Positions 557 through 46,128 of a stretch of DNA of 46,275 nucleotides are shown here, in pieces. Origin of the DNA: a virus (Duplodnaviria; Caudoviricetes); the IMG/VR virus record IMGVR_UViG_3300006169_000027, positions 1 through 46,275 of that record; one strand, 5' to 3'. The translations under genes and the position numbers were made by a program. Position 1 is the first letter of the stretch, and each line of letters opens with the position of its first letter. A model generated the notes under the pieces. It made no database searches, had not been told where the DNA came from, and was given only the letters and a program-made list of their open reading frames with translations.

Positions 557-1147
557 TCAAAATATTTTCGGGATCCGCCTGGAAAAGTACCACGCAAGCA
601 ATATCAAAACGATCGGGATCAACATGATCAAGGTCCGCTTGGTCAGTTGCTTCCCGAATTCCTTCGTCTGGATGATCAATTGCGATTGTGCGTCCCGCAA
701 TGCCGACTTGGTTCCATGTAGTTCCGCTTCCAAGGCGCGGGATCTGGATTGTTCCCGGTGCAATGAATCGCGCAACACATTCGTCGCACGGTGATCGATC
801 ACAATTTTTTCTTGGATGATCGTCCGGTCAATACATGGAAAGGTGTCGTAAATGACCGACACTTTCGATCCGGAATCGCAAAGGATCTTCCGCAAGGAAT
901 CGGCGTCCAATTCTTTCGCCACCGGCGCGCGTTCCGTGATGATCGTGTCGGAATTGAAAATTGTGTCGTTGAAACAAGGATTGAACCGCAACCATAGTCG
1001 TCCGACGTGATCGAACGCGGTGTCGTTGAATGTGACGGTTTTGACCGCCTTTTGAATGCGGCGTTGTGGATCGCATCCCGTAACGACAAGGACCGCGACC
1101 ATCATGATCGCGATCCATTTCATTCGGATAGCTGCACCGGTGATCAT
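557..1147 (-). CDS. Putative unimolecular spanin (lipoprotein with C-terminal TM helix)
   Basis: Start re-called to 1147 (ATGA overlap with upstream stop); lipobox VLVVTG-C; coiled-coil stretch; C-terminal TLIMLIPIVLILLAWYF. Confidence 0.7.
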   Translation of the reverse strand: MITGAAIRMKWIAIMMVAVLVVTGCDPQRRIQKAVKTVTFNDTAFDHVGRLWLRFNPCFNDTIFNSDTIITERAPVAKELDADSLRKILCDSGSKVSVIYDTFPCIDRTIIQEKIVIDHRATNVLRDSLHREQSRSRALEAELHGTKSALRDAQSQLIIQTKEFGKQLTKRTLIMLIPIVLILLAWYFSRRIPKIF

Positions 1148-1566
1148 CTTCGAATTGTTGTTGATCGTTTCGGTGCGTCCGGCGTCTTTAGTTGTTGAAC
1201 CGATATTTCGCCGGTCTTCAATTTCACATTCTTTCGCCGCACCAACCAAGAAAAGACGATTGGAGCAAGCGCGGTGACAAGACCTAGCCACATCGTTAAT
1301 TGTTCCGGCGAAAGCCTTCCCGCCGACACCAAGATCGAACCGATGGATCCGACAACGTGCCGGAGTGCGCCGCCAAGACTTTCTTCCGTGACTTCTTTTG
1401 CAATGAAGGACCAAACGATTGAGATCACCGAAAGGATCGCGCCGCCGATGATTTCCACGGTGTTCGAATCAAGCGGATTTCCGAACAAGGAAATGTTCTT
1501 TCCGATCAACCATCCGCCGACAAGCGTGAACACATATCGAAGGACCGTTTTCAATGTTTCATTCAT
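1144..1566 (-). CDS. Putative holin, multi-pass membrane protein
   Basis: About four hydrophobic segments, basic C-terminus, lysis context. Confidence 0.7.
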   Translation of the reverse strand: MNETLKTVLRYVFTLVGGWLIGKNISLFGNPLDSNTVEIIGGAILSVISIVWSFIAKEVTEESLGGALRHVVGSIGSILVSAGRLSPEQLTMWLGLVTALAPIVFSWLVRRKNVKLKTGEISVQQLKTPDAPKRSTTIRR

Positions 1567-1598
1567 GTTTCAAATTTTAAGGTGAAAAAAAAAATATT

Positions 1599-2015
1599 TC
1601 ATCGGTGATCGTCGCGACCACGCGAACGGATCTTGTCAATCTGCTTTTCCAAATCGTCGAACCGGTGTCCGACACGTTCATCGATGTCTTCGAAACGATC
1701 ATTCACGCGGTCGATCTTTCCTTCGATGGTTCCCATCCACCGGGATTGAGTGACGCGATATTCGTTTTCTGAATCGACGATCTTGCGGACTTCCGATTGA
1801 ACCGTCCTTTCCACTTGTTCCGCTTTTAGACTTGCGCTTCGCGCTTCATTCTTCGCTGAATTGATGTCGGCGGTGATCTTGTTGATCATCCAGATGATCA
1901 AAAAACCAATCACACCGATGATCACCGCACCGGTGATCAGATTTGCGATCCAGACGTTCCCGGTGTCCGCGACATCCGAATCGATTTGTTTTTGCAGTAG
2001 ATAAAACATGATCAA
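1599..2015 (-). CDS. Single-TM coiled-coil protein (holin/antiholin-like)
   Basis: One TM segment then coiled coil; start of lysis cassette. Confidence 0.55.
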   Translation of the reverse strand: MIMFYLLQKQIDSDVADTGNVWIANLITGAVIIGVIGFLIIWMINKITADINSAKNEARSASLKAEQVERTVQSEVRKIVDSENEYRVTQSRWMGTIEGKIDRVNDRFEDIDERVGHRFDDLEKQIDKIRSRGRDDHR

Positions 2016-2019
2016 GGTG

Positions 2020-2292
2020 TCAGGATTTTTTCTTCCGTTGCAATGAATCCGCCGCCGCTTTTTTATTCAACGAATCAAGCGTTTTCAATTGAAAGTTGAC
2101 TTGATCGACGATGAATTTTTTCGCGGCTTCGACCGTGGTGTGTGGCGCGTTGGATTGGTTGATCACTTGAACAACAATTTCCCAATCTTGGATAGTTCCA
2201 TTGACGGCGAAGACCGGCGTTTGTTGTGTAGGTGCTGACGCCTGGAACGCGGTGATCATTGCGACGATAGCGATGAACAAAAGTTTTTTCAT
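2020..2292 (-). CDS. Small helical protein with signal peptide, possible fibre-assembly chaperone
   Basis: MKKLLFIAIVAMITAFQASA N-terminus; short amphipathic helices; directly follows the fibre genes. Confidence 0.55.
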   Translation of the reverse strand: MKKLLFIAIVAMITAFQASAPTQQTPVFAVNGTIQDWEIVVQVINQSNAPHTTVEAAKKFIVDQVNFQLKTLDSLNKKAAADSLQRKKKS

Positions 2293-2319
2293 GATTTCCA
2301 TTTTTTCATTTTTAAAGTA

Positions 2320-4698
2320 TTAACGGCGCGGATTGACCGACATCCGTCGTTTCTTTTGCAATTTCGCATTATTCACGCGAAACTTCCACTTTCGCCATCC
2401 TTTCACATTTTCCGGTGTGGATCCACCGCCGCCGATCCAATCGGTGAAAGTTGGTGCGGTCGGAATCAATGCACAATTCGTCGTATAAGTGAAGTCTGAA
2501 AATTGCGGTTCGCCTTCGTGACGCGTACCGACACCCGCCGGCGAACCATCGAACAAGGTATTGTTGCAGATGATCGATGTGCCGCGATCAAAAGTGTTGT
2601 AAGTGTCATACCCCCAAACATGATTTCCGCCGACATTGATGCCGAACCGATTGCCCCAAACGTAGACGGTCGATGAATCCCATTCCGGACCGCGATCGTT
2701 CACCGATCCGAGTGGTCCCCACGTCGGACGGTTGTCCAAGAAGACGTTCGACGGATAGGATGCAACTTGTCCCGGATACATGCCCGGATTGATCCACCGT
2801 TCATCATTGTAAATATATCCCGTATATGCACCGGCGATCGAAGGAAAGCGCGGAAGGATCCCGGCGGAATCACCCCGGTTGTTATACATCCAATTTTTTT
2901 CCACGCCAAGACATCCGAATGAATAAAGAAACGTGCATGAAATATAGTTGTCGTGCATGTATGCGCGCGACGTCAATCCACCGATCCAAATTCCGGTTCC
3001 TTGTTGTTGGTTTTCTTCGTAACCGGCACGACGAACCACATTCCGCGCGATTTCCTGATATCCGGAATCTGCGCCGCCTAGCTGAATCGCCGAACGATTC
3101 GCGGAATCACAATACACGTTCAAGATCCGGATGTTCGAAAGACGCATTGGAATCAAATGGACCGACACGCCACGCGGAACGGCTCCCGAATATGGACGGG
3201 ATCCCGCGCGCGGTTTGCGTGCCGTTGTCTTCGTATTGACAAGCATGGAAGGAACATCGCCACCGTCCGGGATGAACACTTGCATCGTCGTCCGTTGTGC
3301 CTTACCATCGACCACGCGTGTCGCGCGGACGGTGCGAAGGCGTGAAGATCCGGAAAGCGTTGACGCGCATTCATACGTCCGATTCCCGACCGGATCCGTG
3401 TTCCCGGCATAGACGCCATCTTGAAAGATATTGTATGCGTGGACGTTCTGAATGGTGATGTGGTCCATGGACCATTTCGTCCAATTCAAGGAATCGCCCG
3501 CCGGCGGACATGCGGGATCCTGTTTGATCCAGGCGATGTATGTTTTTTTATAGACGCGAAAGTTTTCGATGATCACATATTTCGATCGACCGCCAACAAC
3601 GACCGCCGGTTGTTGCACGTCTTCCGTCGAATTCGATGCGTTGGTGTTGGTGATAAAGAATCCGTATGTCATCGATTCCGTGGACAATGTTTGATTGTTG
3701 AACGTCGGTTTCGTCACCGTGCCGGATCCGGGACCGGTTCCGGTCATCTTCACAAAATGACAATGTTCAAGATTGATTTGATCGCGGATCACCGGGATCC
3801 CGTTGTTGATGATCACGATCGGACATTGTTGCGTCCCGCGCAAATTGTAGATGTAGATATAATTCCATGTAGGATTTGCGCCGCCTAACGCCTGACGAAT
3901 TTCAATCGTGTCACCGGGAGCGTACAAAGATCCGTTGATGATCTGACCATTGTCACCCGCCGGCAAAAACGAATATTTTGTCCCGGCACATTGCGCGATC
4001 GTGATGGTGACGTCGTCCGTCGATGTAGACGCATTTGCCGCCGTCGTGGTGACACGAAAGACGTGGACGCCGACGGGAAGGTCCGTCACGGTCGTCGATG
4101 CCGAATTCGGGCTTGTAATGACGCCACCGGAGCCTTCAAGACGTGTCCATTGATAGCCGGTGATCGATGTGGATCCGGGCCACGAAAAGGATGCGTCTAG
4201 TGTGACGGTCTGACCTTGCGGTTTTGATTGGTCGCCGCCGGCGGATGCGTGCATCAAGTTCACGCCGGAAGTCGGGATGATCTGGATGAAGTCGACATTG
4301 AATCCGTCAGTCACACCGGACACGCGCATCGTGCGCGCGCCTGACGTGATGGATCCCGTGATCGCGGATGTCAACACATAGGTCGTCCATCCGCCGGTAT
4401 TATTGACGGTCGCCGTTCCAATCTGAACGCCATCGATGGACACGCCGACGGTCTTTCCGCCGAATCCAGACGCCACGCGCAAATAAATGTTGTATGACTG
4501 CGTCGAAGGAATTACAATCGGATATTCCATCCAATCGCCGGCGTCAATATAGCCGACGTTTTTACCGGCAGATGTGCCGGCGGTCGTTTCCACTTGCACG
4601 CCGATAGCGTCGGAATACGATTCCGCTTCGACGTGGATCATTTGTGCGTCCGCCTGGAAAATAGCAAGGAACGCCAAACATGACAAGATTTGTTTCAT
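2320..4698 (-). CDS. Signal peptide + CBM6-like + PKD + right-handed beta-helix protein (depolymerase/adhesin-like), 792 aa
   Basis: MKQILSCLAFLAIFQADA-Q; HVEAESY..NVGYIDAGDWMEY..TGGW..FNVDF (CBM6); ASAGGDQ..VTLDAS..YQW..DDVTITI (PKD); repeated beta-helix-like strands. Confidence 0.8.
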   Translation of the reverse strand: MKQILSCLAFLAIFQADAQMIHVEAESYSDAIGVQVETTAGTSAGKNVGYIDAGDWMEYPIVIPSTQSYNIYLRVASGFGGKTVGVSIDGVQIGTATVNNTGGWTTYVLTSAITGSITSGARTMRVSGVTDGFNVDFIQIIPTSGVNLMHASAGGDQSKPQGQTVTLDASFSWPGSTSITGYQWTRLEGSGGVITSPNSASTTVTDLPVGVHVFRVTTTAANASTSTDDVTITIAQCAGTKYSFLPAGDNGQIINGSLYAPGDTIEIRQALGGANPTWNYIYIYNLRGTQQCPIVIINNGIPVIRDQINLEHCHFVKMTGTGPGSGTVTKPTFNNQTLSTESMTYGFFITNTNASNSTEDVQQPAVVVGGRSKYVIIENFRVYKKTYIAWIKQDPACPPAGDSLNWTKWSMDHITIQNVHAYNIFQDGVYAGNTDPVGNRTYECASTLSGSSRLRTVRATRVVDGKAQRTTMQVFIPDGGDVPSMLVNTKTTARKPRAGSRPYSGAVPRGVSVHLIPMRLSNIRILNVYCDSANRSAIQLGGADSGYQEIARNVVRRAGYEENQQQGTGIWIGGLTSRAYMHDNYISCTFLYSFGCLGVEKNWMYNNRGDSAGILPRFPSIAGAYTGYIYNDERWINPGMYPGQVASYPSNVFLDNRPTWGPLGSVNDRGPEWDSSTVYVWGNRFGINVGGNHVWGYDTYNTFDRGTSIICNNTLFDGSPAGVGTRHEGEPQFSDFTYTTNCALIPTAPTFTDWIGGGGSTPENVKGWRKWKFRVNNAKLQKKRRMSVNPRR

Positions 4699-4716
4699 CG
4701 CTTTTCGCTTTTGATG

Positions 4717-5349
4717 TTAGTATGTGTAAGCATTGACGACCAAGGATCCGACGTCCATGGTGTGACCGGCGGTCCCGGTCTTGATGACCACATGTGTCGT
4801 CGCTTGCGCCACGATGCGACGTCCGCCGCCGGAAAAGGATCTTGTTTGATCGTTTGCCCACACGACCGCGCCGGTATATTCGAACAATGGTTGCGCCGTG
4901 GTTGATGCCGGATCGAATGTTTTGATTTCCACGTTCATCGTGCGTGACGTCACATTGTCGGATTGCACTTGTTTCATGATCACGATCGCGTCATCGGTGT
5001 CCGCACCGTCCGCGCCGCCCCATCCATAGCGATAATTCCAACCGTAATCCGACGCGCCGGCGTCGTATGTGGTTCCGCCATCATCCGACACCCGCATTTC
5101 GATGTCGGTCCATTGGTCCGTTCTGACGCCGTTCAACAGGATTTCAAATCGCTTGTAAGTGCCGGACCATGTCGAAAGCGGAATGACAATCGTGTCTTTA
5201 TTGGAAAGGTTGACGCGTGTGTGAACAACGACACCGGCGTTCGCTTCTTCAAGTTGCGGTCCCGAATTGACGACCATGAATCCAAGGAAAGTTTGTCCAG
5301 ACGATGTAAGTGCGAGTGTTAGCGCAAGAAGGAAAAAGATCTTTTTCAT
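4717..5349 (-). CDS. Signal-peptide-bearing fibre-tip-like beta protein
   Basis: MKKIFFLLALTLALTSSG-Q; YKRFEILLNGV..MRVSDDGGTTYD..DY pattern resembles phage fibre distal domains. Confidence 0.6.
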   Translation of the reverse strand: MKKIFFLLALTLALTSSGQTFLGFMVVNSGPQLEEANAGVVVHTRVNLSNKDTIVIPLSTWSGTYKRFEILLNGVRTDQWTDIEMRVSDDGGTTYDAGASDYGWNYRYGWGGADGADTDDAIVIMKQVQSDNVTSRTMNVEIKTFDPASTTAQPLFEYTGAVVWANDQTRSFSGGGRRIVAQATTHVVIKTGTAGHTMDVGSLVVNAYTY

Positions 5350-5373
5350 GTTGCTTTTTTTATTTGTTTAAAA

Positions 5374-6159
5374 TTACTTGAATTCGAAGATGATGATGAC
5401 ACCGGCGGTCCCTGCTCCACCGGCGCGCGCTTGGTTTGCGGTCGACAATGCACCGCCGCCGCCGCCACCGTAGCCGGTCGCCGCATTTCCTGCCGCCGCC
5501 GCCACCAATCCAAGACCACCCGCGCCTAAAACAGACGAACCGCCATTCCCGGAAGTGCCGACCGTGCCTGATATACGAATCCCGACGTCACCGGGTTCGC
5601 CGCCACGATTGACATCGCCGTTCGTGGATACCGTTCCACCCGCGCCGCCGGCAACACCCGCCGCCGTGGTTCCCGTTGCTTGAAATCCGCCGCCCGAACC
5701 ACCGGGAGCCGTGTATGTTGTTCCGCCGATGGTGATCGTGGTATTTCCGCCGTTGCCGCCATTGCTGCCCGTTGTTGTCCCGGCGGTTCCGGCTGCGCCG
5801 ATTGCGTATGTGTAAGACGTTGCCGATGAAATGCCGGTCAAGAATTTTTCCAGATACGAACCGGATCCGCCGCCACCCGCCGCCGCGACGGAACTATTCG
5901 CACCGGCAACGCCGCCACCGCCACCGCCACCGCCAACCATGCGGATCCAAATTTTTGTTGTCCCGGCGGTCGGAGTGTAGGATGTTCCAGATGTCAACAC
6001 ACGGATCCCGATGATTTGACCTTGCGCCGCCGCGATCGCGGACGTGTTGGTTGCGATCGTGGATTCATTCGCCGCCACGCGTGAAGGAATGTTCGATGAA
6101 TGTTGCGCGTGAATAACACTTGTTATCAACACACATAAAGCAAAAAAGACTTTTTTCAT
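5374..6159 (-). CDS. Signal-peptide-bearing glycine-rich tail fibre-like protein
   Basis: MKKVFFALCVLITSVIHA-Q; TSGTSYTPTAGT..VGGGGGGGG..GGGGSGSY..GAGTAGVIIIFEF, a typical phage Gly-rich domain. Confidence 0.75.
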   Translation of the reverse strand: MKKVFFALCVLITSVIHAQHSSNIPSRVAANESTIATNTSAIAAAQGQIIGIRVLTSGTSYTPTAGTTKIWIRMVGGGGGGGGVAGANSSVAAAGGGGSGSYLEKFLTGISSATSYTYAIGAAGTAGTTTGSNGGNGGNTTITIGGTTYTAPGGSGGGFQATGTTAAGVAGGAGGTVSTNGDVNRGGEPGDVGIRISGTVGTSGNGGSSVLGAGGLGLVAAAAGNAATGYGGGGGGALSTANQARAGGAGTAGVIIIFEFK

Positions 6160-6172
6160 ATTGCTTCAAATT

Positions 6173-9100
6173 TTAGTTGATGATTTTCCATGTGCCGCCT
6201 TGCGCGACGATGTGAAGGACCGAATTCGCCGGAATAGTCGTCAACGCATTATTCAACGCATTGACCGGTCGGTTCGATGCACCGAAATTCCACGCGGATC
6301 CGAATCCATTCCGGATGATGATTTCGCGTCCATCCTGACCGGTTGCCGATGCCATGGTGAACGTGTTGGTCCCTTCCGAAAGTTCGATGTAATGGTCGGT
6401 CGCTTGCAACGTGTAGTCCGCCGCCGGAATGGATTTCACCGCCAACCGGCGCGCGCCTTCCGTGGCGAAAAGTGTGGTGACAAGTCCAGATCCGCCGCCG
6501 TTGAACACGACACCCGGATTCCCGGTTCCATCGTTCAATTCAAATTGTCCGGTTCCGGCGTCGTTGTAAAGTGTCCCGATCGTGGTTCCGCTTTGCTGCA
6601 AATTGATCGCCGTGGTGAAGGTGTTGCCGATTGCAAGCGTTTGGGCAAGCGATTCGCCGCCACCGCTTCCGGCGTTGGAGTTGACGAAGACGCCGTTTTG
6701 ATAGGTCAAGACCTGACCGTTCGTCGGCGATGTAAGTGTCACGCCGACCGATTGTTGCCATCCTTTGACGCCGGTCGACGGATCGGTTCCGTAGACCTTC
6801 GCGTTTCCGGGTGCGGCGTCGTCGTTCAAAAGTTCAACCGTGCCGCCATTTTCGTCAAGTGACTTTTGGAATGTATATGTCGATCCGCCGCCGCTTGCAT
6901 TGATGACATACGGTGACGCGATCGTTCCGGAACCGGTGACGGTGACATTCGTGCCGGCGGAAATGTGACCGGTGATGTTTGCGATCTTGGCGTTCCATGT
7001 GGAAATATTTCCGGAAGTGATCCCGGACGCCGCCGATGCGGTGAAGATCGGATCCGTTTCCGCGCCGCCGGCGGAAGGTGCGACGTTGACGAAGATCCCG
7101 TTTTGATATTGCAAGATGTCGCCGTTCGCCGGATTGGTGAGTTGCATCGTTGCGGATTGCTGCCATCCTTTCGTTCCGGACGCGTTGGTTCCGTAGACGT
7201 AAGAATTTCCAGGCGATGCGGCATCGTTGTCAAGTGTGACGGAAGATCCGGAAAGGTTCAACGATTGGTCGAACGTGTAAGTCGATCCAGATCCCGACGA
7301 ATTGATCACATAAGGCGACGCGATCGTTCCCGCACCCGTGATCGTCACATTCGATCCGGCGGAAATGAATCCCGCGATCGATGCGATGTCGAAGGAATAA
7401 AGAACCGCCGTGTCTTGCGTGACACCGTTGAATGTTCCGGTTTGCGGCGATCGTGTCACGCTTAAACGTGAAGATCCTTGAAAGCCTTGCGCGATGCCGA
7501 CGGCGGTCGTGTCATCCGGGAAAAAGAATGTCGAATCGAATTGCACCGGCGACGTGACGACCGAGTTGCCGATGTAAAAAGACGAACCGCCGGCGGATGA
7601 AGATCCCGGCGTTGATGTGGCATCAAATGACATGCGACCATTTGCATCGACGATCACATTTCGCGTCGTGCCGGTTGTCGCCGGCGGCGTGCCGTCCGTG
7701 TCAAGCGATGTAAATACGTTGTAATCGGATGAAAATGTTGTCGGTGTTCCCGCTTTCGTCTGGAACAACAAACCTTTGTCCGCCGTGTATGCTGATATGA
7801 CGAATTGTTCGGTGATGGCGGATCCGATCGATTGCAGAAAATGGTATCCGGCTAATTCAACGAATTGGATCCCGTTGCCGGATCCGAACACCATGCCGAT
7901 CCCGTTGTTCGCATCGTATCGAAGGGAAAGGCGGTTTGAATTGGTCGTCGTGCGAATGGAGTTTCCGATCCGGATGTCACCATTCACTTCCATCGGATAA
8001 GTATTGTTAGCCGTGTTGACTTGAATGCGCGTGTCGGCGCGCAAGGATCCAGAAATCCAGGCGTCGGCGGTTTGTGCGGATGCGAATTGATTCTTGATTG
8101 CGGTCGGATCGCTTTCCGTGTAAGTAAGTGACAACGTCGGCGTCGTCGTGGCGTTGGTCACGGTTCCGGTGAATCCGTTGCCGTTGGTGAATCCGAACGA
8201 TGTGACGGATCCCGTGCCGCCGGTGTTGAAAAGTGGCATTTCGGTCCCGGCTGCATTCTTGAAGTATGGAAGACCGTCATTTTTGACATAATACACACCC
8301 GCCGGCGGTGTTCCCATGGTTCCGGTCGTCGTGTTGATGTAGTATGCGTTCCCGTAAAAAGCCTTTTGTGTTGCCACATTTTCGACGAATGTTTTTTCAC
8401 CGTTGACGGTTTGATCGCCGGTCAACTTCACCGCCGTCGGATCGGATTCCGATGTCAGGAAAGACGGCGCGTTCGTGATGTTGTTCCAATGAACGGACGC
8501 TTGTCCCGACGTTTGAAGATTCGTTTTCGTGTAGTAATTCGGCGCGGCAGCTATCCAAACCGGATCCGATTCGGAAGTGATGCCGGGAGCCGGACCGGTG
8601 ATGACGTAAGGCGATCCGCTTGTCCCGGATCCCGTGATCGTGATGTTCGATCCTTGCGTGACTAGACCGGTGATGTTTGACAATTTCGAATTCCACGTCG
8701 ATATATTTCCCGCCGTGATACCGGATGCGGCAGATGCGCCGAACACCGGATCGGATTCCGTTGACAACTTGTTGTTGAAGTTCGTCCAATCGGACGACGA
8801 CAACAATCCGCGATTCGATCCGGACGCCGTCGGGATGTTGAATGTATGGACGCCGGATCCCGCGTTTGTGGAAATATTGAAGTCTGTTCCCGCCGATCCC
8901 GTTTGAAATGATTGCGCCGACACCGTGGATCCATTCAGATCCGTAATTCCGCCGCCACCCGCGCCCGTTTGATCCGCCGCGTTGGTCCAGACCGTGCCGT
9001 TAAATTTCAAGACCTGACCATTTTGCGGATTGGACAACGACACGTCGGAAAGATTTGCAAGAAGTGTCACGCCGCCGGCGTTAGATCCCGCCGGGACTGC

Positions 9101-9367
9101 CCACCGGATCGAACCTTTCCAGAATACCAATGAATCGCCGCCGGCATTTTGATAAATGGTGTCAACCGCGAAGGCGAATTCCGTGGTCCCGTTCCACTTG
9201 TTTCGAAGGAATGCGCCGGTCCGCGATCGCGTTGAATTACGGATCAACAATTCAGCATTCCCGCCAACTTTTTCCAGGCGGATCGAATCGCCGCGAATCG
9301 GAACGATCGATTGTGCGTCGGCGAATAATGACATCACCGTCAACACGAAGACCAAGATTTTTTTCAT
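6173..9367 (-). CDS. Signal-peptide-bearing long tail fibre-like protein, 1064 aa, with internal repeats
   Basis: MKKILVFVLTVMSLFADA-Q; repeated ESDP, GSNVTITGxGTxxSPYVI, NGQVLxYxNG and DAAxPGN..YGT..KGWQQS units; position after tail tube. Confidence 0.8.
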   Translation of the reverse strand: MKKILVFVLTVMSLFADAQSIVPIRGDSIRLEKVGGNAELLIRNSTRSRTGAFLRNKWNGTTEFAFAVDTIYQNAGGDSLVFWKGSIRWAVPAGSNAGGVTLLANLSDVSLSNPQNGQVLKFNGTVWTNAADQTGAGGGGITDLNGSTVSAQSFQTGSAGTDFNISTNAGSGVHTFNIPTASGSNRGLLSSSDWTNFNNKLSTESDPVFGASAASGITAGNISTWNSKLSNITGLVTQGSNITITGSGTSGSPYVITGPAPGITSESDPVWIAAAPNYYTKTNLQTSGQASVHWNNITNAPSFLTSESDPTAVKLTGDQTVNGEKTFVENVATQKAFYGNAYYINTTTGTMGTPPAGVYYVKNDGLPYFKNAAGTEMPLFNTGGTGSVTSFGFTNGNGFTGTVTNATTTPTLSLTYTESDPTAIKNQFASAQTADAWISGSLRADTRIQVNTANNTYPMEVNGDIRIGNSIRTTTNSNRLSLRYDANNGIGMVFGSGNGIQFVELAGYHFLQSIGSAITEQFVISAYTADKGLLFQTKAGTPTTFSSDYNVFTSLDTDGTPPATTGTTRNVIVDANGRMSFDATSTPGSSSAGGSSFYIGNSVVTSPVQFDSTFFFPDDTTAVGIAQGFQGSSRLSVTRSPQTGTFNGVTQDTAVLYSFDIASIAGFISAGSNVTITGAGTIASPYVINSSGSGSTYTFDQSLNLSGSSVTLDNDAASPGNSYVYGTNASGTKGWQQSATMQLTNPANGDILQYQNGIFVNVAPSAGGAETDPIFTASAASGITSGNISTWNAKIANITGHISAGTNVTVTGSGTIASPYVINASGGGSTYTFQKSLDENGGTVELLNDDAAPGNAKVYGTDPSTGVKGWQQSVGVTLTSPTNGQVLTYQNGVFVNSNAGSGGGESLAQTLAIGNTFTTAINLQQSGTTIGTLYNDAGTGQFELNDGTGNPGVVFNGGGSGLVTTLFATEGARRLAVKSIPAADYTLQATDHYIELSEGTNTFTMASATGQDGREIIIRNGFGSAWNFGASNRPVNALNNALTTIPANSVLHIVAQGGTWKIIN

Positions 9368-9388
9368 ACGAATTTTTGTTTTCTAATG

Positions 9389-9436
9389 AAAAACACGCGG
9401 ACACATCGAACATTTGTGATCCGGATGCGCCGCGTG
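9389..9436 (-). terminator. Probable intrinsic terminator after tail tube gene
   Basis: cacgcgg-gcatc...gatgtgtccgcgtg stem followed by TTTTT on minus strand. Confidence 0.55.
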
Positions 9437-9456
9437 CTTGAATTGATGTGAAAGAA

Positions 9457-10047: not shown

Positions 10048-10071
10048 GCAAATGATTTTTTTTGTGAATAA

Positions 10072-35464: not shown

Positions 35465-35476
35465 GATGTTGATGTT

Positions 35477-36955: not shown

Positions 36956-36957
36956 GT

Positions 36958-37155: not shown

Positions 37156-37161
37156 GTAGAT

Positions 37162-37686
37162 CTATTTTTTGTCAAAAGTTACGGTCACACCGGTCGTCGA
37201 TCGCTTGATCGGCGGATACACGGTCACGACTTCGCCGGTGTCTTCGATGGTGATCGTGACGCCGTCCGCCGGAACATTCTTCAAGAAGGATTCGATTTCC
37301 TTCAATTGCGCCGCGATCGCCTGGAATTGGTCATTCAGTTCGTTCCATCGCGGATGATGGCATCCGGTGAAATCGAACTTGGTTCCTTGCTCCTTGATTT
37401 CGAAGGTCGCGTCGCCGCGCTTGAATTGCTTGGATCCTTGGCGTTCCGCCGCTTCAAGCAATCTTTCGGAATAGATCTTCGCGGTTGCGGGATTGGACTT
37501 TTTGTCGGTGAGCATTGAAAGACATGATTCGATCGATTTGATTTGATAGTGAACGTCGATCGGATCAAGTTGTCCTTCGTCGATGGCTTCAAGTATGGCG
37601 GCGGCAAATGATGCGCGTTTTTGCGCGGTCGGGAATTCGGGTGCATCCGTGCGGATGACGCGAAGATCGATGATTGTTTTTTTCAT
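37162..37686 (-). CDS. Hypothetical protein (phage early/recombination region)
   Basis: 174 aa; KFDFTGC..W..L...LKEIESFLK..DTGEV..YPP. Confidence 0.65.
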   Translation of the reverse strand: MKKTIIDLRVIRTDAPEFPTAQKRASFAAAILEAIDEGQLDPIDVHYQIKSIESCLSMLTDKKSNPATAKIYSERLLEAAERQGSKQFKRGDATFEIKEQGTKFDFTGCHHPRWNELNDQFQAIAAQLKEIESFLKNVPADGVTITIEDTGEVVTVYPPIKRSTTGVTVTFDKK

Positions 37687-38342
37687 GATTCAAAAATTGA
37701 TGTTTGTGTGATGAATGGTTTCGTGAATTGGTCGGCAATTGCGGCAGCTATTCCGGTATAAGTCCGGGACCGTTCCTTCCAACGGTCTTTTGTGTCCGGC
37801 ATCATGTGCATCCGGTTCCGGACTTTTGGATCCAGACGCATCATTTCGGCGCGGACGTTGTTGGTCGGACGAAGGCGCGGCAGATTGTGCAGCCATAAAC
37901 ACGTTCCTTTTTGTTCCGGGTGTCCGAACATCCACGGTTGAATTTTTTGATGATAGCGGACGCCGATTTCCTTGATTGCGTATCCGTGCGGGACCGGATT
38001 TTCAAGCATCAACCGCCGGACGCGGGAACGAAGATCCCAACAACGGCGGAAAAAGCGCGCCGCCTGGATCATCTTTTCCCATCGTCCCGGTTCCGAGTGC
38101 AGCCATTGAACGCCGGAATGTGCCAAGAAGGTGCAAGGCGGATGAATGATCGCAAGATCGTAAAAGAACGGCGGCAATGATTCGATGTGTGCGAATAGAT
38201 CCATTTGATGATGAACACCGTGATCCGCTTCCGATGGCAGCAAGTCGCACGACGCCGCATTCCATCCGCGCGCGGTCAAGGCGTCGCGCATAATAGCCGA
38301 ATATTCACATCCGACGATCGCATTCATGCCGATCATTTTCAT
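37683..38342 (-). CDS. Phage DNA cytosine methyltransferase-like protein
   Basis: VGCEYS..RDA..G..A.SCDL, HPPCT (motif IV), ENP (motif VI), K.TCLWL, RS.TY.GIA. Confidence 0.8.
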   Translation of the reverse strand: MKMIGMNAIVGCEYSAIMRDALTARGWNAASCDLLPSEADHGVHHQMDLFAHIESLPPFFYDLAIIHPPCTFLAHSGVQWLHSEPGRWEKMIQAARFFRRCWDLRSRVRRLMLENPVPHGYAIKEIGVRYHQKIQPWMFGHPEQKGTCLWLHNLPRLRPTNNVRAEMMRLDPKVRNRMHMMPDTKDRWKERSRTYTGIAAAIADQFTKPFITQTSIFES

Positions 38343-38710
38343 TCTGGATCCTTTTTGTGTGAATAGCTGCCGTCGCCGTTGTCGATCCATTCGCGGCGAA
38401 GGTTGGTCACGGTCTTTTGTGCGATCGCGTGTTTCAGCATGTTGACGGTGAATCCGCGCCGGCGAAGATAGGTCAACATACACATCACAACGTCGGCACA
38501 TTCGACGAGCGATTCCGATTCGTTCCCGGATTGATGCGCTTCGATCAATTCTTTCAATTCCTTGCCGGCATGGATCAAGCATCCTTCCGGTGTTCCTTTC
38601 GGGAAAAGTTGATCGGCGGCGGACATCCATTCGTCGACCACGCGGTCCAAAGGTTTGTTCATGGTGTTCCGATAGTGCATGTCGACGATCGGTGTTTCAG
38701 TTTTTGACAT
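38339..38710 (-). CDS. MazG-like dATP/dGTP pyrophosphohydrolase (DUF550-like)
   Basis: H..KELKEL..ECADV..K..N..REW. Confidence 0.7.
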   Translation of the reverse strand: MSKTETPIVDMHYRNTMNKPLDRVVDEWMSAADQLFPKGTPEGCLIHAGKELKELIEAHQSGNESESLVECADVVMCMLTYLRRRGFTVNMLKHAIAQKTVTNLRREWIDNGDGSYSHKKDPE

Positions 38711-38730
38711 GATTTGATGTTTGTGATTTT

Positions 38731-39240
38731 TTACAATACGATTTCGCGCGCAATATCTTCGTGAATTGGTTCATGGACGAATCCGACCATCACTTGCGCG
38801 AGTGCTTCCGCGACTTCTTTTTCGGTGATCTTGAATCCGCGTTCATTCAATGACTTGGTCTTTATGCGGACATATTCTTCCCGGCTGCACGGGATGACGC
38901 CGGTGTCGGTCTGGATCTTCAAGATCCGGCGGTTTTCGCCGACCGGCTGATCTAGTGCAAGTTTTGCCATTGCTTCGACGATGGTCAATTTTTCCTTCCC
39001 GGTCAACTTTCGACCGGCGATTGATTCGATCAAGTTCAAAAATTGTTCATGTTTCATTGTCGTCCGGTTTTTTAGCATGTCAAGAATGATCCGGCATTTC
39101 TTGTAATATTTTATTTCGAATAGTGCTTGCATTTCGGTAGCATGGTCGGCGATGGTCTTGAATTTCCACGATTTCCAGGCGAAATAAAGCGCAATACCGA
39201 CGGCGATGATGATGGTGAATGTTGACGCGTTGATGTTCAT
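38731..39240 (-). CDS. Membrane-anchored hypothetical protein
   Basis: N-terminal TM helix. Confidence 0.6.
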   Translation of the reverse strand: MNINASTFTIIIAVGIALYFAWKSWKFKTIADHATEMQALFEIKYYKKCRIILDMLKNRTTMKHEQFLNLIESIAGRKLTGKEKLTIVEAMAKLALDQPVGENRRILKIQTDTGVIPCSREEYVRIKTKSLNERGFKITEKEVAEALAQVMVGFVHEPIHEDIAREIVL

Positions 39241-39255
39241 GGTGATGGTTTTTGG

Positions 39256-39420
39256 TTAGTTTTTGCAAATGTGAATGACAAGGTTCATTTGTGTCGCATG
39301 GACAAGCGGTCCTTGCGGGATCCGCGTGAATGTGAACTTCCATTTCAAAAGGTCGAATTCTTCTTGCGGGATCCGCATCAAGTGAATTCCGGAATGGATG
39401 TGCGTGAAGATGTTTTGCAT
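39256..39420 (-). CDS. Small hypothetical protein, 54 aa (MQNIFTHIHSG..HICKN)
   Basis: Manual translation; fills the gap; below the ORF-track cut-off. Confidence 0.5.
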   Translation of the reverse strand: MQNIFTHIHSGIHLMRIPQEEFDLLKWKFTFTRIPQGPLVHATQMNLVIHICKN

Positions 39421-39424
39421 GTGG

Positions 39425-39574
39425 TTAGTTTGGATGAATGAAACAAATCATTTTTCCGAATCGACGCGATTCGCGATTGAAAAAATGGAATTCGACGCGT
39501 GTAGGTTGTGATGGTGTGATCCAAGATCCGGTTGCATAATAGCCGGACAGGATGAACGGGAACAATTTGATCAT
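39425..39574 (-). CDS. Small hypothetical protein
   Basis: Start re-called to MIKLFP after a CATCAC leader. Confidence 0.5.
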   Translation of the reverse strand: MIKLFPFILSGYYATGSWITPSQPTRVEFHFFNRESRRFGKMICFIHPN

Positions 39575-39604
39575 TTGTGATGGTTTTGATGTGATTGTAA
39601 AGGT

Positions 39605-39643
39605 AAAAGGAAGGATCCGGAAATTCAAGTCCAGATCCTTCCG
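39605..39643 (-). terminator. Intrinsic terminator
   Basis: ggaaggatctgga/tccggatccttcc stem plus TTTT. Confidence 0.7.
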
Positions 39644-39650
39644 GGATTGG

Positions 39651-40250
39651 TTAGGCTTCGACCGCTTCCGGTTCGTCGGCGGTCTTCTTGCGACCGCGCT
39701 TTGACGGCGGCATTTTGGCGTCGACGCCGGAATCGATGCCGTTCGGCGATTCGTCGTGATCTTCGAACATGGACAATTGTGGATCCGGTGCGGATTTCCC
39801 GTAGTCCAGATATTCCGCCGCTTCTTTTTCGATGCGGTCGATGGATTCTAGCAATTGATCGATGAACTTGTATCCGGTTTCTGATTCTTCATTGAATCGG
39901 GTGAATGGAGTGTTCACCGTGACCGTCTTCCCATTTTTCAACGTGCGGATCCCGGTGATGATGATTCCAGGATCATCTTCCGCACCGCCGATCGAATAAC
40001 CGGACACGCGGAAATCTTCCGTCGCTTTTTTTGGCGGATTTCCGAATTGCTTGATTTCTGACACATCCACGAATCCGGCAAGAAGTGTGAAATGAAGTGT
40101 CAATCCGGCGAAAGCTGCCTTGAAGTCGTCATGAACCGGTGTTTTCGATTCGATTGTTGTTTTTGCCTTCTTTCGTCCTTCACCGGTGACGAACGAGATC
40201 AACGGCGTCGCGCCTTCGATCAACTTGACCTTGACAATTTTGCGTTCCAT
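39651..40250 (-). CDS. Hypothetical protein (OB/SSB-like, acidic tail)
   Basis: 199 aa flanked by terminators; VHDDFK..GIIITG..VNTP..Y; QLSMF clamp-like motif. Confidence 0.6.
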   Translation of the reverse strand: MERKIVKVKLIEGATPLISFVTGEGRKKAKTTIESKTPVHDDFKAAFAGLTLHFTLLAGFVDVSEIKQFGNPPKKATEDFRVSGYSIGGAEDDPGIIITGIRTLKNGKTVTVNTPFTRFNEESETGYKFIDQLLESIDRIEKEAAEYLDYGKSAPDPQLSMFEDHDESPNGIDSGVDAKMPPSKRGRKKTADEPEAVEA

Positions 40251-40272
40251 CGCTTTTTTTGATTTGGGTGTA

Positions 40273-40308
40273 TAAAAATGCCGGTCACGGAATGGATCCG
40301 CGCCGGCG
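40273..40308 (-). terminator. Intrinsic terminator
   Basis: gccgg-cgcgga..tccgtg-ccggc plus ATTTTT. Confidence 0.6.
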
Positions 40309-40313
40309 TTGCT

Positions 40314-40694
40314 TCAATATGAATTCGGACGAAGTTGCGGTTCCACGTCCTTGATGATGACGTCATTCATTCGGTTCAAACCAATCCACCGTTCGCCCAT
40401 GTAAGTCAAGATCTTGAACCATGTGCCGCGCGGCAGCTTGGATATGATTGGATTTTTTAGTTGCGTCAGTTCGAAGTCGATGTCGGTGATCTTCTTGTTG
40501 TATTCATCGATCTGACCGACGATCGCGTTCGTCTTGGCGCAATGCGCGTTCCATTCTTCGACGGTCGCGGTGATCGGTGCGGTGCATTCCTTCGTCAATT
40601 CCGCGATGGTGTTGCGGTGATCTGACCTTTCGAATTCAAGTTGTTGGATCTTGTCGATCGCTTCGACAAGAAAGTCGGTTGTCAATTGCTCCAT
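40314..40694 (-). CDS. Hypothetical coiled-coil protein
   Basis: 126 aa. Confidence 0.6.
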   Translation of the reverse strand: MEQLTTDFLVEAIDKIQQLEFERSDHRNTIAELTKECTAPITATVEEWNAHCAKTNAIVGQIDEYNKKITDIDFELTQLKNPIISKLPRGTWFKILTYMGERWIGLNRMNDVIIKDVEPQLRPNSY

Positions 40695-40706
40695 GATTGT
40701 GATGTT

Positions 40707-40901
40707 TTAGATGTTGTCGTCAATGTGATAAAAAAGACACGCGACGATCTTGGTTTGCATCTGGACCATGGACGAATTGATGAATTCGAAATTGAACTTC
40801 CGTCCGGACTTGGACATGAATTCGAAAAAGCGGTTGATTTCGTCATTCAGTTCGTTCGCATCGCGTGCCACGATGACGCGGCATTTAGTTGTCTTTTTCA
40901 T
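40707..40901 (-). CDS. Hypothetical protein
   Basis: 64 aa. Confidence 0.55.
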   Translation of the reverse strand: MKKTTKCRVIVARDANELNDEINRFFEFMSKSGRKFNFEFINSSMVQMQTKIVACLFYHIDDNI

Positions 40902-40902
40902 G

Positions 40903-41163
40903 TTAGTCGATGTTTTGTTGCATGAGTTGAAAGCGGATCATCGCGTGACGACATTTCATCGTGAACTTGAAGTCAATGTTGCCGTGTTCGACTTGGACTT
41001 CACATCCGGCGTCAAACATCTGATAGGCGATTTCCTTCACTTGGTTCGCGGCTTCCGCTTGGCTTGCCGCCTGGATTCTAAGGACCACCGGCGACGATGA
41101 AGACGCCTTTTCGGTTGATCGATGCGGATGCGATGTGATGGTCAATGCGAAGATCTTTTCCAT
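40903..41163 (-). CDS. Hypothetical protein
   Basis: Start re-called to MEKIFAL. Confidence 0.55.
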   Translation of the reverse strand: MEKIFALTITSHPHRSTEKASSSSPVVLRIQAASQAEAANQVKEIAYQMFDAGCEVQVEHGNIDFKFTMKCRHAMIRFQLMQQNID

Positions 41164-41165
41164 GA

Positions 41166-41417
41166 TTAAAAGATTGAAGATTGTTTCAAAATTGGTTTGC
41201 AAGTCCGGGCAATGCCGGTATAAATGGCGATCGAAACTTCCACGCGGTCGCCGGCTTTCGGTTTGTCGGCGACATAGTCGAAGTCGATCCAGAATGTCGA
41301 ACCGTAGTCGGTCACGACCTTCGTGTCGCCGTTGATGTTGTGTTCGGGAAGGACGGTCACGGCGACCGTGATGCGTGGCATTCGCTGACCGTCTTGAACG
41401 ATGATTTGTTCTTGCAT
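41166..41417 (-). CDS. Hypothetical protein
   Basis: 83 aa. Confidence 0.55.
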   Translation of the reverse strand: MQEQIIVQDGQRMPRITVAVTVLPEHNINGDTKVVTDYGSTFWIDFDYVADKPKAGDRVEVSIAIYTGIARTCKPILKQSSIF

Positions 41418-41429
41418 GATTCAAATGGT

Positions 41430-41654
41430 TTAATTGTGAATTAAAATTGTGATGATAGAAAAGTGCGTCACGAACGTCAGGACGTCGATGATGACGTCAA
41501 GAATTGCCGTGAAGACATGATAAAACTTTTGCCCGTTGTCTTCGATGAATTCGAATGACACTTGCACACCTTTCGGAAATGATTCCATCGGCAAGACTGA
41601 AAGCGCGGTTCCGGTGTGCATGATCTGCATCGTTTGGATTTGTGAAAGTTGCAT
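41430..41654 (-). CDS. Hypothetical protein
   Basis: Start re-called to MQLSQ. Confidence 0.5.
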   Translation of the reverse strand: MQLSQIQTMQIMHTGTALSVLPMESFPKGVQVSFEFIEDNGQKFYHVFTAILDVIIDVLTFVTHFSIITILIHN

Positions 41655-41670
41655 GTTAGTCGGTTTGAAG

Positions 41671-41940
41671 TTAGTCAAATGGATTCGATTCGCCGTCCTT
41701 GGAGCCGTAGAATGTTGCCTTGTCAGCATTGCAAAAATAGGTCAACACACCATCCGTCGAAAGATGCGGATAATTGTGGAACCTTGTCAATAGTTCGAAG
41801 GTTAACACGATTTCACCATTTTCGCCGTATTCGATCCGAAGGCGATCACCGGCGGACGGTTGAAACTTGCCCGGAACTTCGACGAATGTGTTTTGATTGG
41901 TGTCAGGATGCGTAAAGAAGACGCGTGTGATGATGTTCAT
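41671..41940 (-). CDS. Hypothetical protein
   Basis: 89 aa with CATCACATC leader. Confidence 0.6.
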   Translation of the reverse strand: MNIITRVFFTHPDTNQNTFVEVPGKFQPSAGDRLRIEYGENGEIVLTFELLTRFHNYPHLSTDGVLTYFCNADKATFYGSKDGESNPFD

Positions 41941-41963
41941 GATGTGATGTATTTTAGAAATGG

Positions 41964-42461
41964 TTAGAAATTCGGATCCGGCTTCGTGATGTCTTCGAAG
42001 GTGTTGTCGTCCACGGTGATCACCGTGTCGGAAGATGTCTTTTCCTTTTTCGGCTTTTCGATGATCGGCGTGATGCGACCGGCGCGGAAAAGATCATTGA
42101 ACATGAAACGACGGTTCGTGTGCGTGCCGGCGAAGACGGATCCGTTGATCACGACTTTCTTCGTCCGGACGGTCATGAATTCGTCATCGATCGCGATCAC
42201 CTTGTTTTCGATCTTCACGGAATAACCGGGAATTGCGAGTTCATAGCGGTCGCCGACTTCCGGAATCCAAACCGCTTTTTCATCTTCCCAAAATGCGCGC
42301 GCGCCGCCTTCCGCGTCCCGGTATTCCGACACGCCGTCATGTGTGACGATGCACGATTCGCCGAATGGATAATAATTCGGAATGATGTCCGTGATCGTGA
42401 AGATGATCTTGCCGTTGTTGATGGCGAATTTTTGTCCGATGCGAAATGTGATGTGTTGCAT
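41964..42461 (-). CDS. Hypothetical protein, first gene of an early operon
   Basis: 165 aa, starts MQHIT. Confidence 0.65.
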   Translation of the reverse strand: MQHITFRIGQKFAINNGKIIFTITDIIPNYYPFGESCIVTHDGVSEYRDAEGGARAFWEDEKAVWIPEVGDRYELAIPGYSVKIENKVIAIDDEFMTVRTKKVVINGSVFAGTHTNRRFMFNDLFRAGRITPIIEKPKKEKTSSDTVITVDDNTFEDITKPDPNF

Positions 42462-42501
42462 GATTGTGATGGTTTTGATGTGATGTGTGATGTTTCGGTT
42501 T

Positions 42502-42538
42502 CAAATATAGAAACACTTCCCGGAATAACAAATGTTAT
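42502..42538 (-). promoter_or_regulatory. Consensus Bacteroidota promoter TTTG-N19-TATATTTG overlapped by palindrome ATAACAAATGTTAT
   Basis: -7 box at 42502-42509, -33 box at 42529-42532, palindrome at 42525-42538. Confidence 0.8.
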
Positions 42539-42554
42539 TTTTCCCCATTTCGAC

Positions 42555-43067
42555 CTATTTTTTCCGCCATTTCGACGAAAAAGGCGGTGTTTTTTGCGCT
42601 TCCGGCTGATTTCCAGGCGGATCGATGTCCGTTTCGCCGGTCTGGATCCGGTTCATGTCCTTCCATGTAGGCTTGAACCATGGCGTCGCGCGCATGTAGT
42701 CGGATATCAAGATCATGAAGTCTTCGACGGACCGGCAAATTTCGTACTTGTATCCCATCGACCGCGCCCACTTCATAAACATGATTTGATCGTCGGTTTG
42801 TTCGTTCGTGCCAACTTTCATTTCGATATAGAAACCATGGAATTCACCGGACGGGATGGACAAGAACAAATCCGCCACGCCACGCACGACGCCCATGCGC
42901 TTAAATTTAGCCGCTTCGATGACGTTCCGGGATCCACCATTCGCCGGATGGAAAAGACAGTAAACAAAGCGCGCGTATTGCATCCGGAACCATGACACAC
43001 AATGCGCTTGCAATTGATCTTCCGAAATATGGAAAGGATCTTTCCTTCTTGTTGGAGTTTTTGACAT
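42555..43067 (-). CDS. VRR-NUC domain nuclease
   Basis: EDQLQ..HPANGG.R..GV..GVADL..FYIEMK..Q...Q. Confidence 0.85.
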   Translation of the reverse strand: MSKTPTRRKDPFHISEDQLQAHCVSWFRMQYARFVYCLFHPANGGSRNVIEAAKFKRMGVVRGVADLFLSIPSGEFHGFYIEMKVGTNEQTDDQIMFMKWARSMGYKYEICRSVEDFMILISDYMRATPWFKPTWKDMNRIQTGETDIDPPGNQPEAQKTPPFSSKWRKK

Positions 43068-45456: not shown

Positions 45457-45470
45457 GGTTAGAATGAATT

Positions 45471-45818
45471 TTAATGTTTGGCGACCGTTGGTTGATGAAG
45501 TGTGCGGTTTTCGGCGCGAATCAACGCGTCTTCCGGAAGTTCGACCGCGTGCATGATCATGTCGACGATGGTTTCCAATTCGTCTTTCTTCGACTTACCT
45601 TCGAAGTAAAGGTCGAAGATCTTTTGCGCGTTCCGCATGGCGCGGACTGCCTTGATCAATTCTTTCAATGACTTGATGTGCATGTTTGAAAAACGGACCA
45701 TCGCTTCCGATGCTTCCGTGATAGATACGAACTTTTGTCCGCCAAGCGCGGTTTCAACTTGGCAATGCGCCGTAAGTACGGCGGCGGCGTAATCGATCGA
45801 AGTTTTGTTGATGTTCAT
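45471..45818 (-). CDS. Hypothetical protein
   Basis: 115 aa. Confidence 0.6.
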   Translation of the reverse strand: MNINKTSIDYAAAVLTAHCQVETALGGQKFVSITEASEAMVRFSNMHIKSLKELIKAVRAMRNAQKIFDLYFEGKSKKDELETIVDMIMHAVELPEDALIRAENRTLHQPTVAKH

Positions 45819-45831
45819 GATGCTTCCTTTT

Positions 45832-46041
45832 TTATGGTTGTGAATTATTGAATGTGAAGTTCGCGGAAAGGTATTCGGACACCTTCGCCGTCAATGTGAC
45901 GTCGTCAAGCAATACGGCGGTGATGTCGTGAAGTGATGTTCCTTTGATGTATAGATGATTGATGATGATGCGCGGTCCAGAATGGAACCAATCGGCGACG
46001 AAAGTCATTCCGATCGCCGGAATTTCCGTGATGTGTTGCAT
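45832..46041 (-). CDS. Hypothetical protein, first early gene
   Basis: 69 aa, starts MQHIT. Confidence 0.6.
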   Translation of the reverse strand: MQHITEIPAIGMTFVADWFHSGPRIIINHLYIKGTSLHDITAVLLDDVTLTAKVSEYLSANFTFNNSQP

Positions 46042-46066
46042 GATGTGATGTTTTTAAATGGTCCGG

Positions 46067-46099
46067 CAATGATAACAAATGTTATTGACACGAACCAAA
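46067..46099 (-). promoter_or_regulatory. Candidate early promoter TTTG-N21-TATCATTG with palindrome at 46072-46085
   Basis: One mismatch to TAnnTTTG; palindrome lies between the boxes. Confidence 0.55.
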
Positions 46100-46128
46100 T
46101 TTTTCGATAATCGCCTGGAAATTAGTCG

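Follow-up and report, generated by a model that had tools for sequence, protein, structure and literature searches.

An evenly spaced array of CCWGG-bearing octamers in a circular phage genome, possibly held between opposing host pressures

The octamer CGCCTGGA recurs at even intervals throughout the phage genome of IMG/VR record IMGVR_UViG_3300006169_000027 (Duplodnaviria; Caudoviricetes). The stretch analysed, here called the window, is the whole record of 46,275 nucleotides, which is circular and complete and consists of a 46,188-bp circle and an 87-nt terminal overlap. The window holds 39 exact copies of the word, 23 on the plus strand and 16 on the minus strand (Table 1); the array is real and strongly selected, and the unit that is spaced is the CCWGG core rather than the whole 8-mer. 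This genome-wide CCWGG lattice is likely held by two opposing host pressures, a nuclease and a methylation-sensing defence: a two-site nuclease of the EcoRII type would punish close CCWGG pairs, so that pairs are removed, and the methylation-sensing defence would reward one mark about every kilobase. The fixed flanks would then be those still permitted by the phage's avoidance of other words and by the DNA modification that it carries out itself. The model as a whole, in which a two-site nuclease is combined with retained methylated marks, has in our judgement somewhat less than an even chance of being right, and its parts differ in strength.

The excess over chance is large by both kinds of shuffle. 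In 100 dinucleotide shuffles the octamer is found 0.87 +/- 0.88 times with a maximum of 4, which makes the 39 observed copies a 45-fold enrichment, and 500 synonymous-codon shuffles of 51 curated genes give 3.6 +/- 1.8 copies (maximum 10) against the 35 present there, a 10-fold enrichment, the copies at 15557, 34326, 35032 and 46112 lying outside this curated set. A sequence-only reading of the window had listed 39 copies, set them against a naive expectation of one or two, and proposed that selection acts on the DNA itself. Exact search bears out every coordinate and strand, both kinds of shuffle confirm the excess, and selection on the DNA is supported by the codon-shuffle result and by the occurrence of the word in several reading frames and both orientations. 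Only the self-overlapping CGCCGCCG is commoner among the 8-mers of the genome, and 35 of the 69 synonymous openings for the octamer are used, compared with 3.1 expected, which places the octamer first of 238 common 8-mers on both measures. The Markov model of order 5-6 that the same reading had proposed as a refutation proves to be circular, predicting 33.7 and 39 copies when trained with the copies in place and 0.2 and 0 when they are masked.

Measured on the circle, the gaps between octamers average 1184 bp and range from 553 to about 2557 bp, with a coefficient of variation (CV) of 0.373 against 0.963 for random placement. None of 200,000 random placements reaches so low a CV, the analytic probability of a minimum gap of at least 553 bp is 4.1e-11, and the CGCCTGGA family is the most regular among 3254 words of four to nine letters. 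Pairs of CCWGG sites less than 550 bp apart number 0, compared with about 21 expected, no three sites fall within 1262 bp, and long gaps are also scarce, with P(max <= 2556) = 0.0004. Random placement under a 553-bp hard core gives a less even array than the observed one (P = 0.007); pure random saturation, which gives a CV of 0.21 and is thus more even than what is observed, was rejected as a spacing model. The earlier description of the spacing as near-regular, with nothing below about 550 bp, therefore stands (random placement would put 37% of gaps under 553 bp, a share that it had given as about 39%), but its term periodic does not, since no fixed or phase-locked period is present when the array is compared with gap-shuffled ones over 30-55 cycles per genome (P = 0.64). 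Helical phasing of the gaps was rejected as well (R about 0.1).

That the core and not the octamer is the spaced unit can be seen from the sites and near-sites outside the array. The window contains 41 CCWGG sites in total, 39 in the exact 8-mer and two others, one with a single flank changed and one in a TCCAGGA context. As the sequence-only reading had remarked, both lie inside gaps, 874 and 792 bp from the nearest octamer, and the probability that both would keep clear of every copy is 0.003 at the observed distance of 792 bp and 0.03 at 553 bp. The CCAGG/CCTGG core has the lowest gap CV of all words, 0.351, slightly below that of the 8-mer. The 47 near-copies that match at seven of eight positions and have a broken core are not repelled by the array (median distance 299 bp vs 297 bp for the background), and the near-variants CGTCTGGA and CGCCGGGA were rejected as lattice members.

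The orientation of the copies is in random order, with 18 switches against 19.4 expected, and the gap CV for each strand alone is 0.67 and 0.72, only weakly regular, compared with 0.37 for the pooled strands. These figures bear on the possibility that the word is a strand-specific signal, be it a nick site, a priming site or, like Chi, a stop for a helicase-nuclease. An asymmetric, GC-rich 8-bp word at high density is reminiscent of Chi, the octamer of RecBCD/AddAB, which is likewise asymmetric, GC-rich and dense and which acts in one orientation, and the plus-strand set is somewhat regular by itself (P = 0.03 for the CV and 0.0009 for the minimum). The rule in the window, on the other hand, ignores orientation, its regularity is far stronger in the pooled strands, and gaps within a single strand extend up to 5.7 and 7.1 kb. 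The nick motifs of tf, Rembedalsseter, phiKMV-like phages and T5 share with the window word the form of an exact, short, asymmetric word that runs through genes, but as described in the published passages those of tf and Rembedalsseter are confined to a single strand, and in the Rembedalsseter group they are unevenly spread (PMC11780129, PMC3517423), whereas the window word, with its 23 plus and 16 minus copies, is evenly spread. Because the regularity resides in the pooled strands and the orientation order is random, the Chi-like and nick-site suggestions of the sequence-only reading are not supported, and a strand-specific signal in general is very improbable.

Some related phages space the same core. 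Eighteen related records were compared, taken from the loci collected and partly chosen after partial results had been seen (G418 and G419 were left out), with G004, G410, G411, G416 and G417 covered to 40-60 kb each. Three records with 0-6 CCWGG sites were set aside, and the other 15 form 12 lineages by shared 16-mers. Protein identity is about 50% for the relatives that have DNA records; the nearest capsid homologues (76% and 66%) are protein records only. Even CCWGG spacing (gap CV p < 0.01) is present in five of the 12 lineages (binomial 7e-8), and CCWGG ranks 1, 1, 1, 2 and 2 in evenness among 450-510 five-mers in the best record of each (G002, G004, G414, G406 and G420), a comparison with about 500 words that guards against multiple testing. 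An unbiased scan for the most regular word returns CCAGG/CCTGG in G004, G002 and L010. The flanks of CCWGG are free in the five evenly spaced lineages. The deficit of pairs is strongest at the shortest distances and is graded at short range in G004 and G002; in G004, observed over expected pairs are 1/20, 8/20, 13/20 and 22/20 at 0-100, 100-200, 200-300 and 300-400 bp. The deficit extends furthest in G408, where it fades by about 850-1000 bp; in the window and G406 it does so by about 550 bp, in G004 by 300-400 bp and in G002 by 200 bp. Long CCWGG gaps are scarce in G004 (7 vs 14.6). G414 and G415 retain CCWGG, which makes up 75-82% of all their CCAG, and purge other CCAG; CCGG and GCWGC are purged in them too. 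G004 encodes its own polymerase and has in common with the window virion and packaging genes only, yet it spaces CCWGG, which points to a host-side cause.

None of the 19 virus records searched is enriched in the octamer (0-4 copies), nor is G005 (57 in 3.9 Mb), and a scan of the relatives for other words both enriched and evenly spaced found none. CCWGG spacing is not significant in five E. coli phages (lambda, T1, Mu and the first 50 kb of 9g and N4) or in 100 kb of G005, with z from -1.4 to +1.6. Of a further 13 restriction-type words, GATC in G406 alone is clearly evenly spaced (n = 112, CV 0.66, z -3.6); GATC in G414/G415 and a few single values reach z of about -2.

A two-site CCWGG nuclease is, by analogy with a known enzyme, the rather probable cause of the even spacing. 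EcoRII is described as recognising CCWGG, needing two or three sites on one DNA whatever their orientation, and acting mostly through short loops, with inactivity reported beyond 1000 bp and some loops of up to 7 kb measured (PMC1474071, PMC4081073). Since enzymes of this type need two or three sites, favour short loops and ignore orientation, they would remove close pairs; the window and five of the 12 relative lineages lack close CCWGG pairs, and the spacing in the window is independent of orientation, as for such an enzyme. Ordinary restriction avoidance removes sites, and the DNA of T3 and T7 resists EcoRII because its sites are few, whereas the window retains about one site per kilobase in one fixed context. 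EcoRII-N genes accompanied by a methylase and Vsr occur in three of 351 sampled genomes of the likely host phylum. The sequence-only reading, whose interpretation is partly supported, had missed the core as the spaced unit, the free flanks in relatives and a minimum distance that fits two-site restriction. Several observations weigh against a two-site nuclease: EcoRII-N is found in under 1% of the sampled genomes, 15 of the 41 window gaps measure 553-1000 bp and so lie inside the reported range of EcoRII, the exclusion distance varies among relatives from about 130 to 1000 bp, and six of the 12 lineages give no CCWGG spacing signal (a seventh being borderline at 0.06).

Even spacing might also arise by coverage alone, in which each methylated CCWGG would serve about 0.5-1 kb to either side, in a self check or in methyl-directed repair, and redundant neighbours would decay by mutation, with no two-site nuclease involved. 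E. coli repair is reported to need a GATC within a limited distance and to gain nothing from more of them (PMC4786541). The minimum gap scales with the mean gap across genomes instead of being fixed, and the scarcity of long gaps in the window and in G004 would follow, as would the even GATC spacing of G406 and its weak counterpart in G414/G415. GATC is, however, also the target of Sau3AI, another two-site enzyme (PMC1474071). Minima of 629 bp (G406) and 999 bp (G408) coexist with gaps of 4-6 kb in G406-G408, three relatives are without sites, and openings in the largest window gap stand unused. We also know of no CCWGG-directed long-patch repair, which counts against coverage alone, and on balance we regard it as unlikely.

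Whatever removes the pairs, the remaining CCWGG sites are very probably kept actively, given that 33 of the 64 six-base palindromes are entirely absent from the window and CCWGG has gone from some relatives, whereas 39 copies of one CCWGG context remain. A model of flank funnelling predicts 0.164 octamers per site and gives P(39 of 41) = 1e-28, and a context that is merely tolerated should hold about 1-4 copies. Funnelling by avoided words, which the sequence-only reading had named as a possible refutation, accounts for one flank base, the T, since 62 of 65 other CCAG also follow T, but leaves the rest of the flank, the count and the spacing unexplained. The octamer copy in the putative major capsid gene encodes a glycine at residue 67 that is otherwise found only in the closest relative, P0002 (76% identical), and further octamer sites also deviate from the residues found in relatives. 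Since CCWGG already has a special status in relatives, it is probably the core that brings the benefit. Other results argue against a benefit: CCWGG as a whole is not above the codon-shuffle mean in genes (37 vs 38.0), other 8-mers reach 45-50% of their openings with about 7-8-fold excess, the genome inflating its allowed words, and the amino-acid-level excess of the octamer is ordinary (69 vs 46.5, rank 40 of 238). Moreover, the synonymous-opening scan finds openings left unused in the largest window gap, and in the proteins of the closest relative one of three checkable sites is incompatible with the word. Three further related records have nearly no CCWGG, and these, together with the lineages that show no spacing, imply that the marks are not generally needed; CCWGG gaps of 4-6 kb occur in G406-G408; and CCWGG is below expectation in G002, G004 and G406-G408, where plain thinning suffices and no benefit is needed.

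If no benefit were involved at all, the octamer would be the only shielded CCWGG context, inflated by a word funnel or by biased repair as modelled for HIP1 and thinned by two-site restriction. Such funnels are strong in the window, where CCAG is preceded by T in 98 of 104 cases and AGCT is flanked by G at 22 of 25 sites; CCWGG sites are in total as many as the codon shuffles give on average, most relatives can be accounted for by thinning with nothing else, CGTCTGGA, a near-word, shows a 6.7-fold enrichment of its own, and Elhai proposes a repair-driven creation of such words. Nevertheless, the octamer tops 238 common 8-mers though it is thinned and contains a heavily avoided dinucleotide, destroying a core is easier than building three flank bases, and the spacing exceeds in evenness that of a hard core with random placement. 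Vsr-driven creation of sites was rejected, as the precursor CTTGG is not depleted (112 vs 93 expected). An origin without benefit is, on this evidence, decidedly improbable.

The closest parallel for a retained word is HIP1 (GCGATCGC) of cyanobacteria, described as an over-represented octamer that contains a methylase target, is found both within genes and between them and is regarded as selected, with its function unknown; it is a palindrome on bacterial chromosomes, 15- to 300-fold over-represented and with a periodicity of 10-90 kb (PMC5861425, PMC4390886). The window word resembles it in being enriched (45-fold by dinucleotide shuffle, 10-fold by codon shuffle) and in having as its core the Dcm/EcoRII target. 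It differs from HIP1 in that CGCCTGGA is not palindromic, resides in a phage and shows short-range exclusion, and in that no fixed period is present, 46 kb being too short for periods of 10-90 kb. By these analogies, two things would come together in the array: avoidance aimed at a two-site enzyme, and a methylation word retained as HIP1 is.

The flanks have to be seen against a genome-wide word bias, in which AG and TA stand at 0.43 and 0.34 of expectation, CCTC is absent and GATC and CCGG are 3-3.6-fold enriched. GGATCC (88 copies), GATC and CCGG have the highest amino-acid-level excess of all, but their spacing is random. GAG/CTC is reduced to 0.06 of expectation in the window, and G004, which spaces CCWGG, also purges GAG (0.07 in L063), hinting at similar host defences. 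AGCT persists mostly beside G, 16 sites being AGCTGC, a pattern that suggests shielding by overlapping GCWGC methylation. Among six-base palindromes, 12 of 14 with GA are kept (GAG-containing ones set aside), compared with nine of 40 other G-containing ones, and this retention suggests that a GA modification is active now or was formerly. GA is the target reported for DpdA in phage CAjan (PMC7544227), and the window has a DpdA-like gene in two pieces and, adjoining it, a gene for a QueF-like protein, which together suggest 7-deazaguanine modification. A T flank puts a GA dinucleotide on the CCTGG strand, so that shielding at GA would explain this base. Against such shielding, the stop and start of the two DpdA-like pieces overlap, and the split could be genuine or could stem from a faulty assembly; the CG on the right-hand side lacks an explanation, and TCCAGGA, which would be doubly GA-shielded, occurs only once. 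GGC modification was rejected as a shield for the right flank, since GGCC is purged (5 sites). A minimal C5-cytosine methyltransferase-like protein of 219 amino acids, for which no PDB sequence match was found, is a candidate shield for the flanks.

The exactness of the flanks could instead mean that a protein encoded by the phage docks on the whole 8-mer, for DNA coating, packaging, ejection or anti-restriction, and that the core only subjects the 8-mer to spacing. This agrees with the presence of the exact 8-mer at 39 of 41 sites, with a right flank that is not funnelled, with the 0-4 copies per record in relatives at about 50% protein identity, as for a lineage-specific protein, and with the presence of a gene for a probable helix-turn-helix protein, no other product of the phage being an obvious candidate for sequence-specific binding. 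On the other hand, it is unlikely (about 1%, an estimate) that an asymmetric 8-mer would hold CCWGG by chance when relatives already space CCWGG; G004 spaces it with no non-structural gene in common with the window, and the non-octamer CCWGG sites obey the spacing rule. In addition, the phage methylase appears too small for an obvious 8-bp recognition domain, and no convincing binder was found; Atlas searches of the proteins at 33615 and 44920 as candidate readers returned nothing over the bar. A docking site is accordingly a rather unlikely explanation of the array.

For the retention of CCWGG sites, the self mark against host defence proposed by the sequence-only reading stays the leading guess, by the precedent of DISARM, and it remains a guess. 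A Dcm-type methylase of the previous host would mark the sites, and the marks would quieten a scanning defence such as class 2 DISARM, a tentative proposal that we consider possible. In class 2 DISARM, DrmMII methylates CCWGG and the methylation marks self; methylated DNA lowers the ATPase activity of DrmAB, acting as an off switch, and DISARM restricts DNA without target sites (bioRxiv 2021.12.28.474362, PMC9142583). The published passages contain no spacing requirement, and the window phage is tied to the system by analogy. The same sources also hold points against such marks: in phages, protection does not change in proportion to the number of sites, a control plasmid to which no motifs had been added shows a 21-fold gain, and class 2 DISARM protects against modified phage too (bioRxiv 2021.12.28.474362, PMC9142583). 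Since there is no scaling with site number and the effect on the control plasmid is large, the support drawn from DISARM is modest. Long site-free stretches are scarce in the window and in G004; it is otherwise in G406-G408 and in the CCWGG-free relatives. In the sampled genomes of the likely phylum, DrmA-like genes were found in 17 of 351 at E < 1e-100, with four over the cut-off, and a C5 methylase is present in three of six scanned DrmA loci (selected proteins only), one of them 44% identical to an EcoRII-adjacent methylase. L153, L157 and L159 are Bacteroidota loci with DrmA/DrmB-like genes, NERD-UvrD helicases and a C5 methylase (with Vsr in L153), a DISARM-like layout.

The identified genes of the window all lie on the minus strand and comprise a terminase, scaffold, putative capsid, putative portal, tail fibres, M15 endolysin, VRR-NUC nuclease, C5-methylase and the QueF-like and DpdA-like genes; no DNA polymerase or integrase was recognised among the 56 open reading frames scanned. 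PADLOC named none of seven window proteins, except for one weak cyclase match. A host among the Bacteroidota is suggested by a genome bin of the Crocinitomicaceae with a capsid homologue and by a homologue labelled Chitinophagaceae; a capsid alignment search of 400 genomes of the likely host phylum found no further prophage, and cultured phages gave distant matches only. A near-palindrome, TAACAAATGTTA / TAACATTTGTTA, is found at 17667, 29141, 42526, 44392, 44476 and 46073 (with a variant at 32620), at gene boundaries and inside the gene at 43998-44918, and resembles an operator or iteron, perhaps for the helix-turn-helix protein. CACTTAC occurs 11 times between 2599 and 35856, always on the coding strand and unevenly, 10 times in genes against 1.4 expected, as a codon funnel or a one-strand signal. 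Among the tail genes, a 792-aa protein (2320-4698) with CBM6 and PKD domains resembles secreted carbohydrate-active proteins, and an 18-bp tandem repeat at 17680-17769 encodes the acidic tail of the putative portal.

Table 1. Positions of the octamer array and of associated features in the window.
Feature	Position	Strand	Remarks
CGCCTGGA, 23 copies	within 576..46119	+	starts 576, 2239, 4651, 10306, 11521, 12197, 13091, 14550, 17348, 17901, 20088, 21400, 25673, 26630, 28761, 31101, 35868, 37318, 38061, 41068, 43619, 45348, 46112
CGCCTGGA, 16 copies	within 3528..42619	- (coding strand)	plus-strand coordinates 3528, 7208, 8056, 9273, 15557, 16473, 19081, 22437, 23606, 29860, 32323, 33770, 34326, 35032, 39174, 42612
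Largest gap, about 2557 bp	4659..7207		spans tail-fibre genes, raised G+C; unused synonymous openings at 5677, 5700, 6289
CCWGG with one flank changed, CGCCTGGT	24799..24806 (core 24801)	+	divides a 2067-bp gap into 1194 + 874
CCWGG in TCCAGGA context	39966..39972 (core 39967)		divides a 1894-bp gap into 792 + 1103
Internal duplication in long tail-fibre gene	6777..7235		copies 402 bp apart; site (7208) in one copy only, opening at 6806 unused
Octamer copy in putative major capsid gene	13091..13098	+	encodes Gly67; T, L, V or I at this residue in 118 of 119 homologues
DpdA-like gene (queuine tRNA-ribosyltransferase family), two pieces	35477..36192 (35668-36192, 35477-35671)	-	both match phrog_887
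QueF-like protein	36189..36530	-	below family cut-offs; adjoins DpdA-like gene
Minimal C5-cytosine methyltransferase-like protein, 219 aa	37683..38342	-	PC and ENP motifs, C5-MTase fold, pLDDT 88
Probable helix-turn-helix protein, 178 aa	44920..45456	-	all match scores under the tool's bar

In the literature searched, which takes in few subscription papers, neither a signal role for the word nor evenly spaced CCWGG in phages is described. Avoidance is usually measured by site counts; here the signal is the spacing of sites, and it recurs in five of 12 related lineages. Two-site restriction can in this way be recognised from genome sequences, and any phage collection could be screened for it at little cost. 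What avoidance cannot account for is seen in the window, where dozens of targets are purged and CCWGG is kept at about one per kilobase. More speculatively, and with the chances rather against it, the phage lattice may be a counterfeit methylation passport, a minimal set of targets for host methylases that is dense enough to pacify a mark-sensing defence and sparse enough to escape two-site nucleases. If that is true, the gap distribution would measure the reach of both host machines, and the CCWGG and GATC lattices in other phages would be one phenomenon. If the marks pacify a DISARM-like system, they would allow a direct test of how defences that restrict DNA without targets tell self from non-self, and over what distance.

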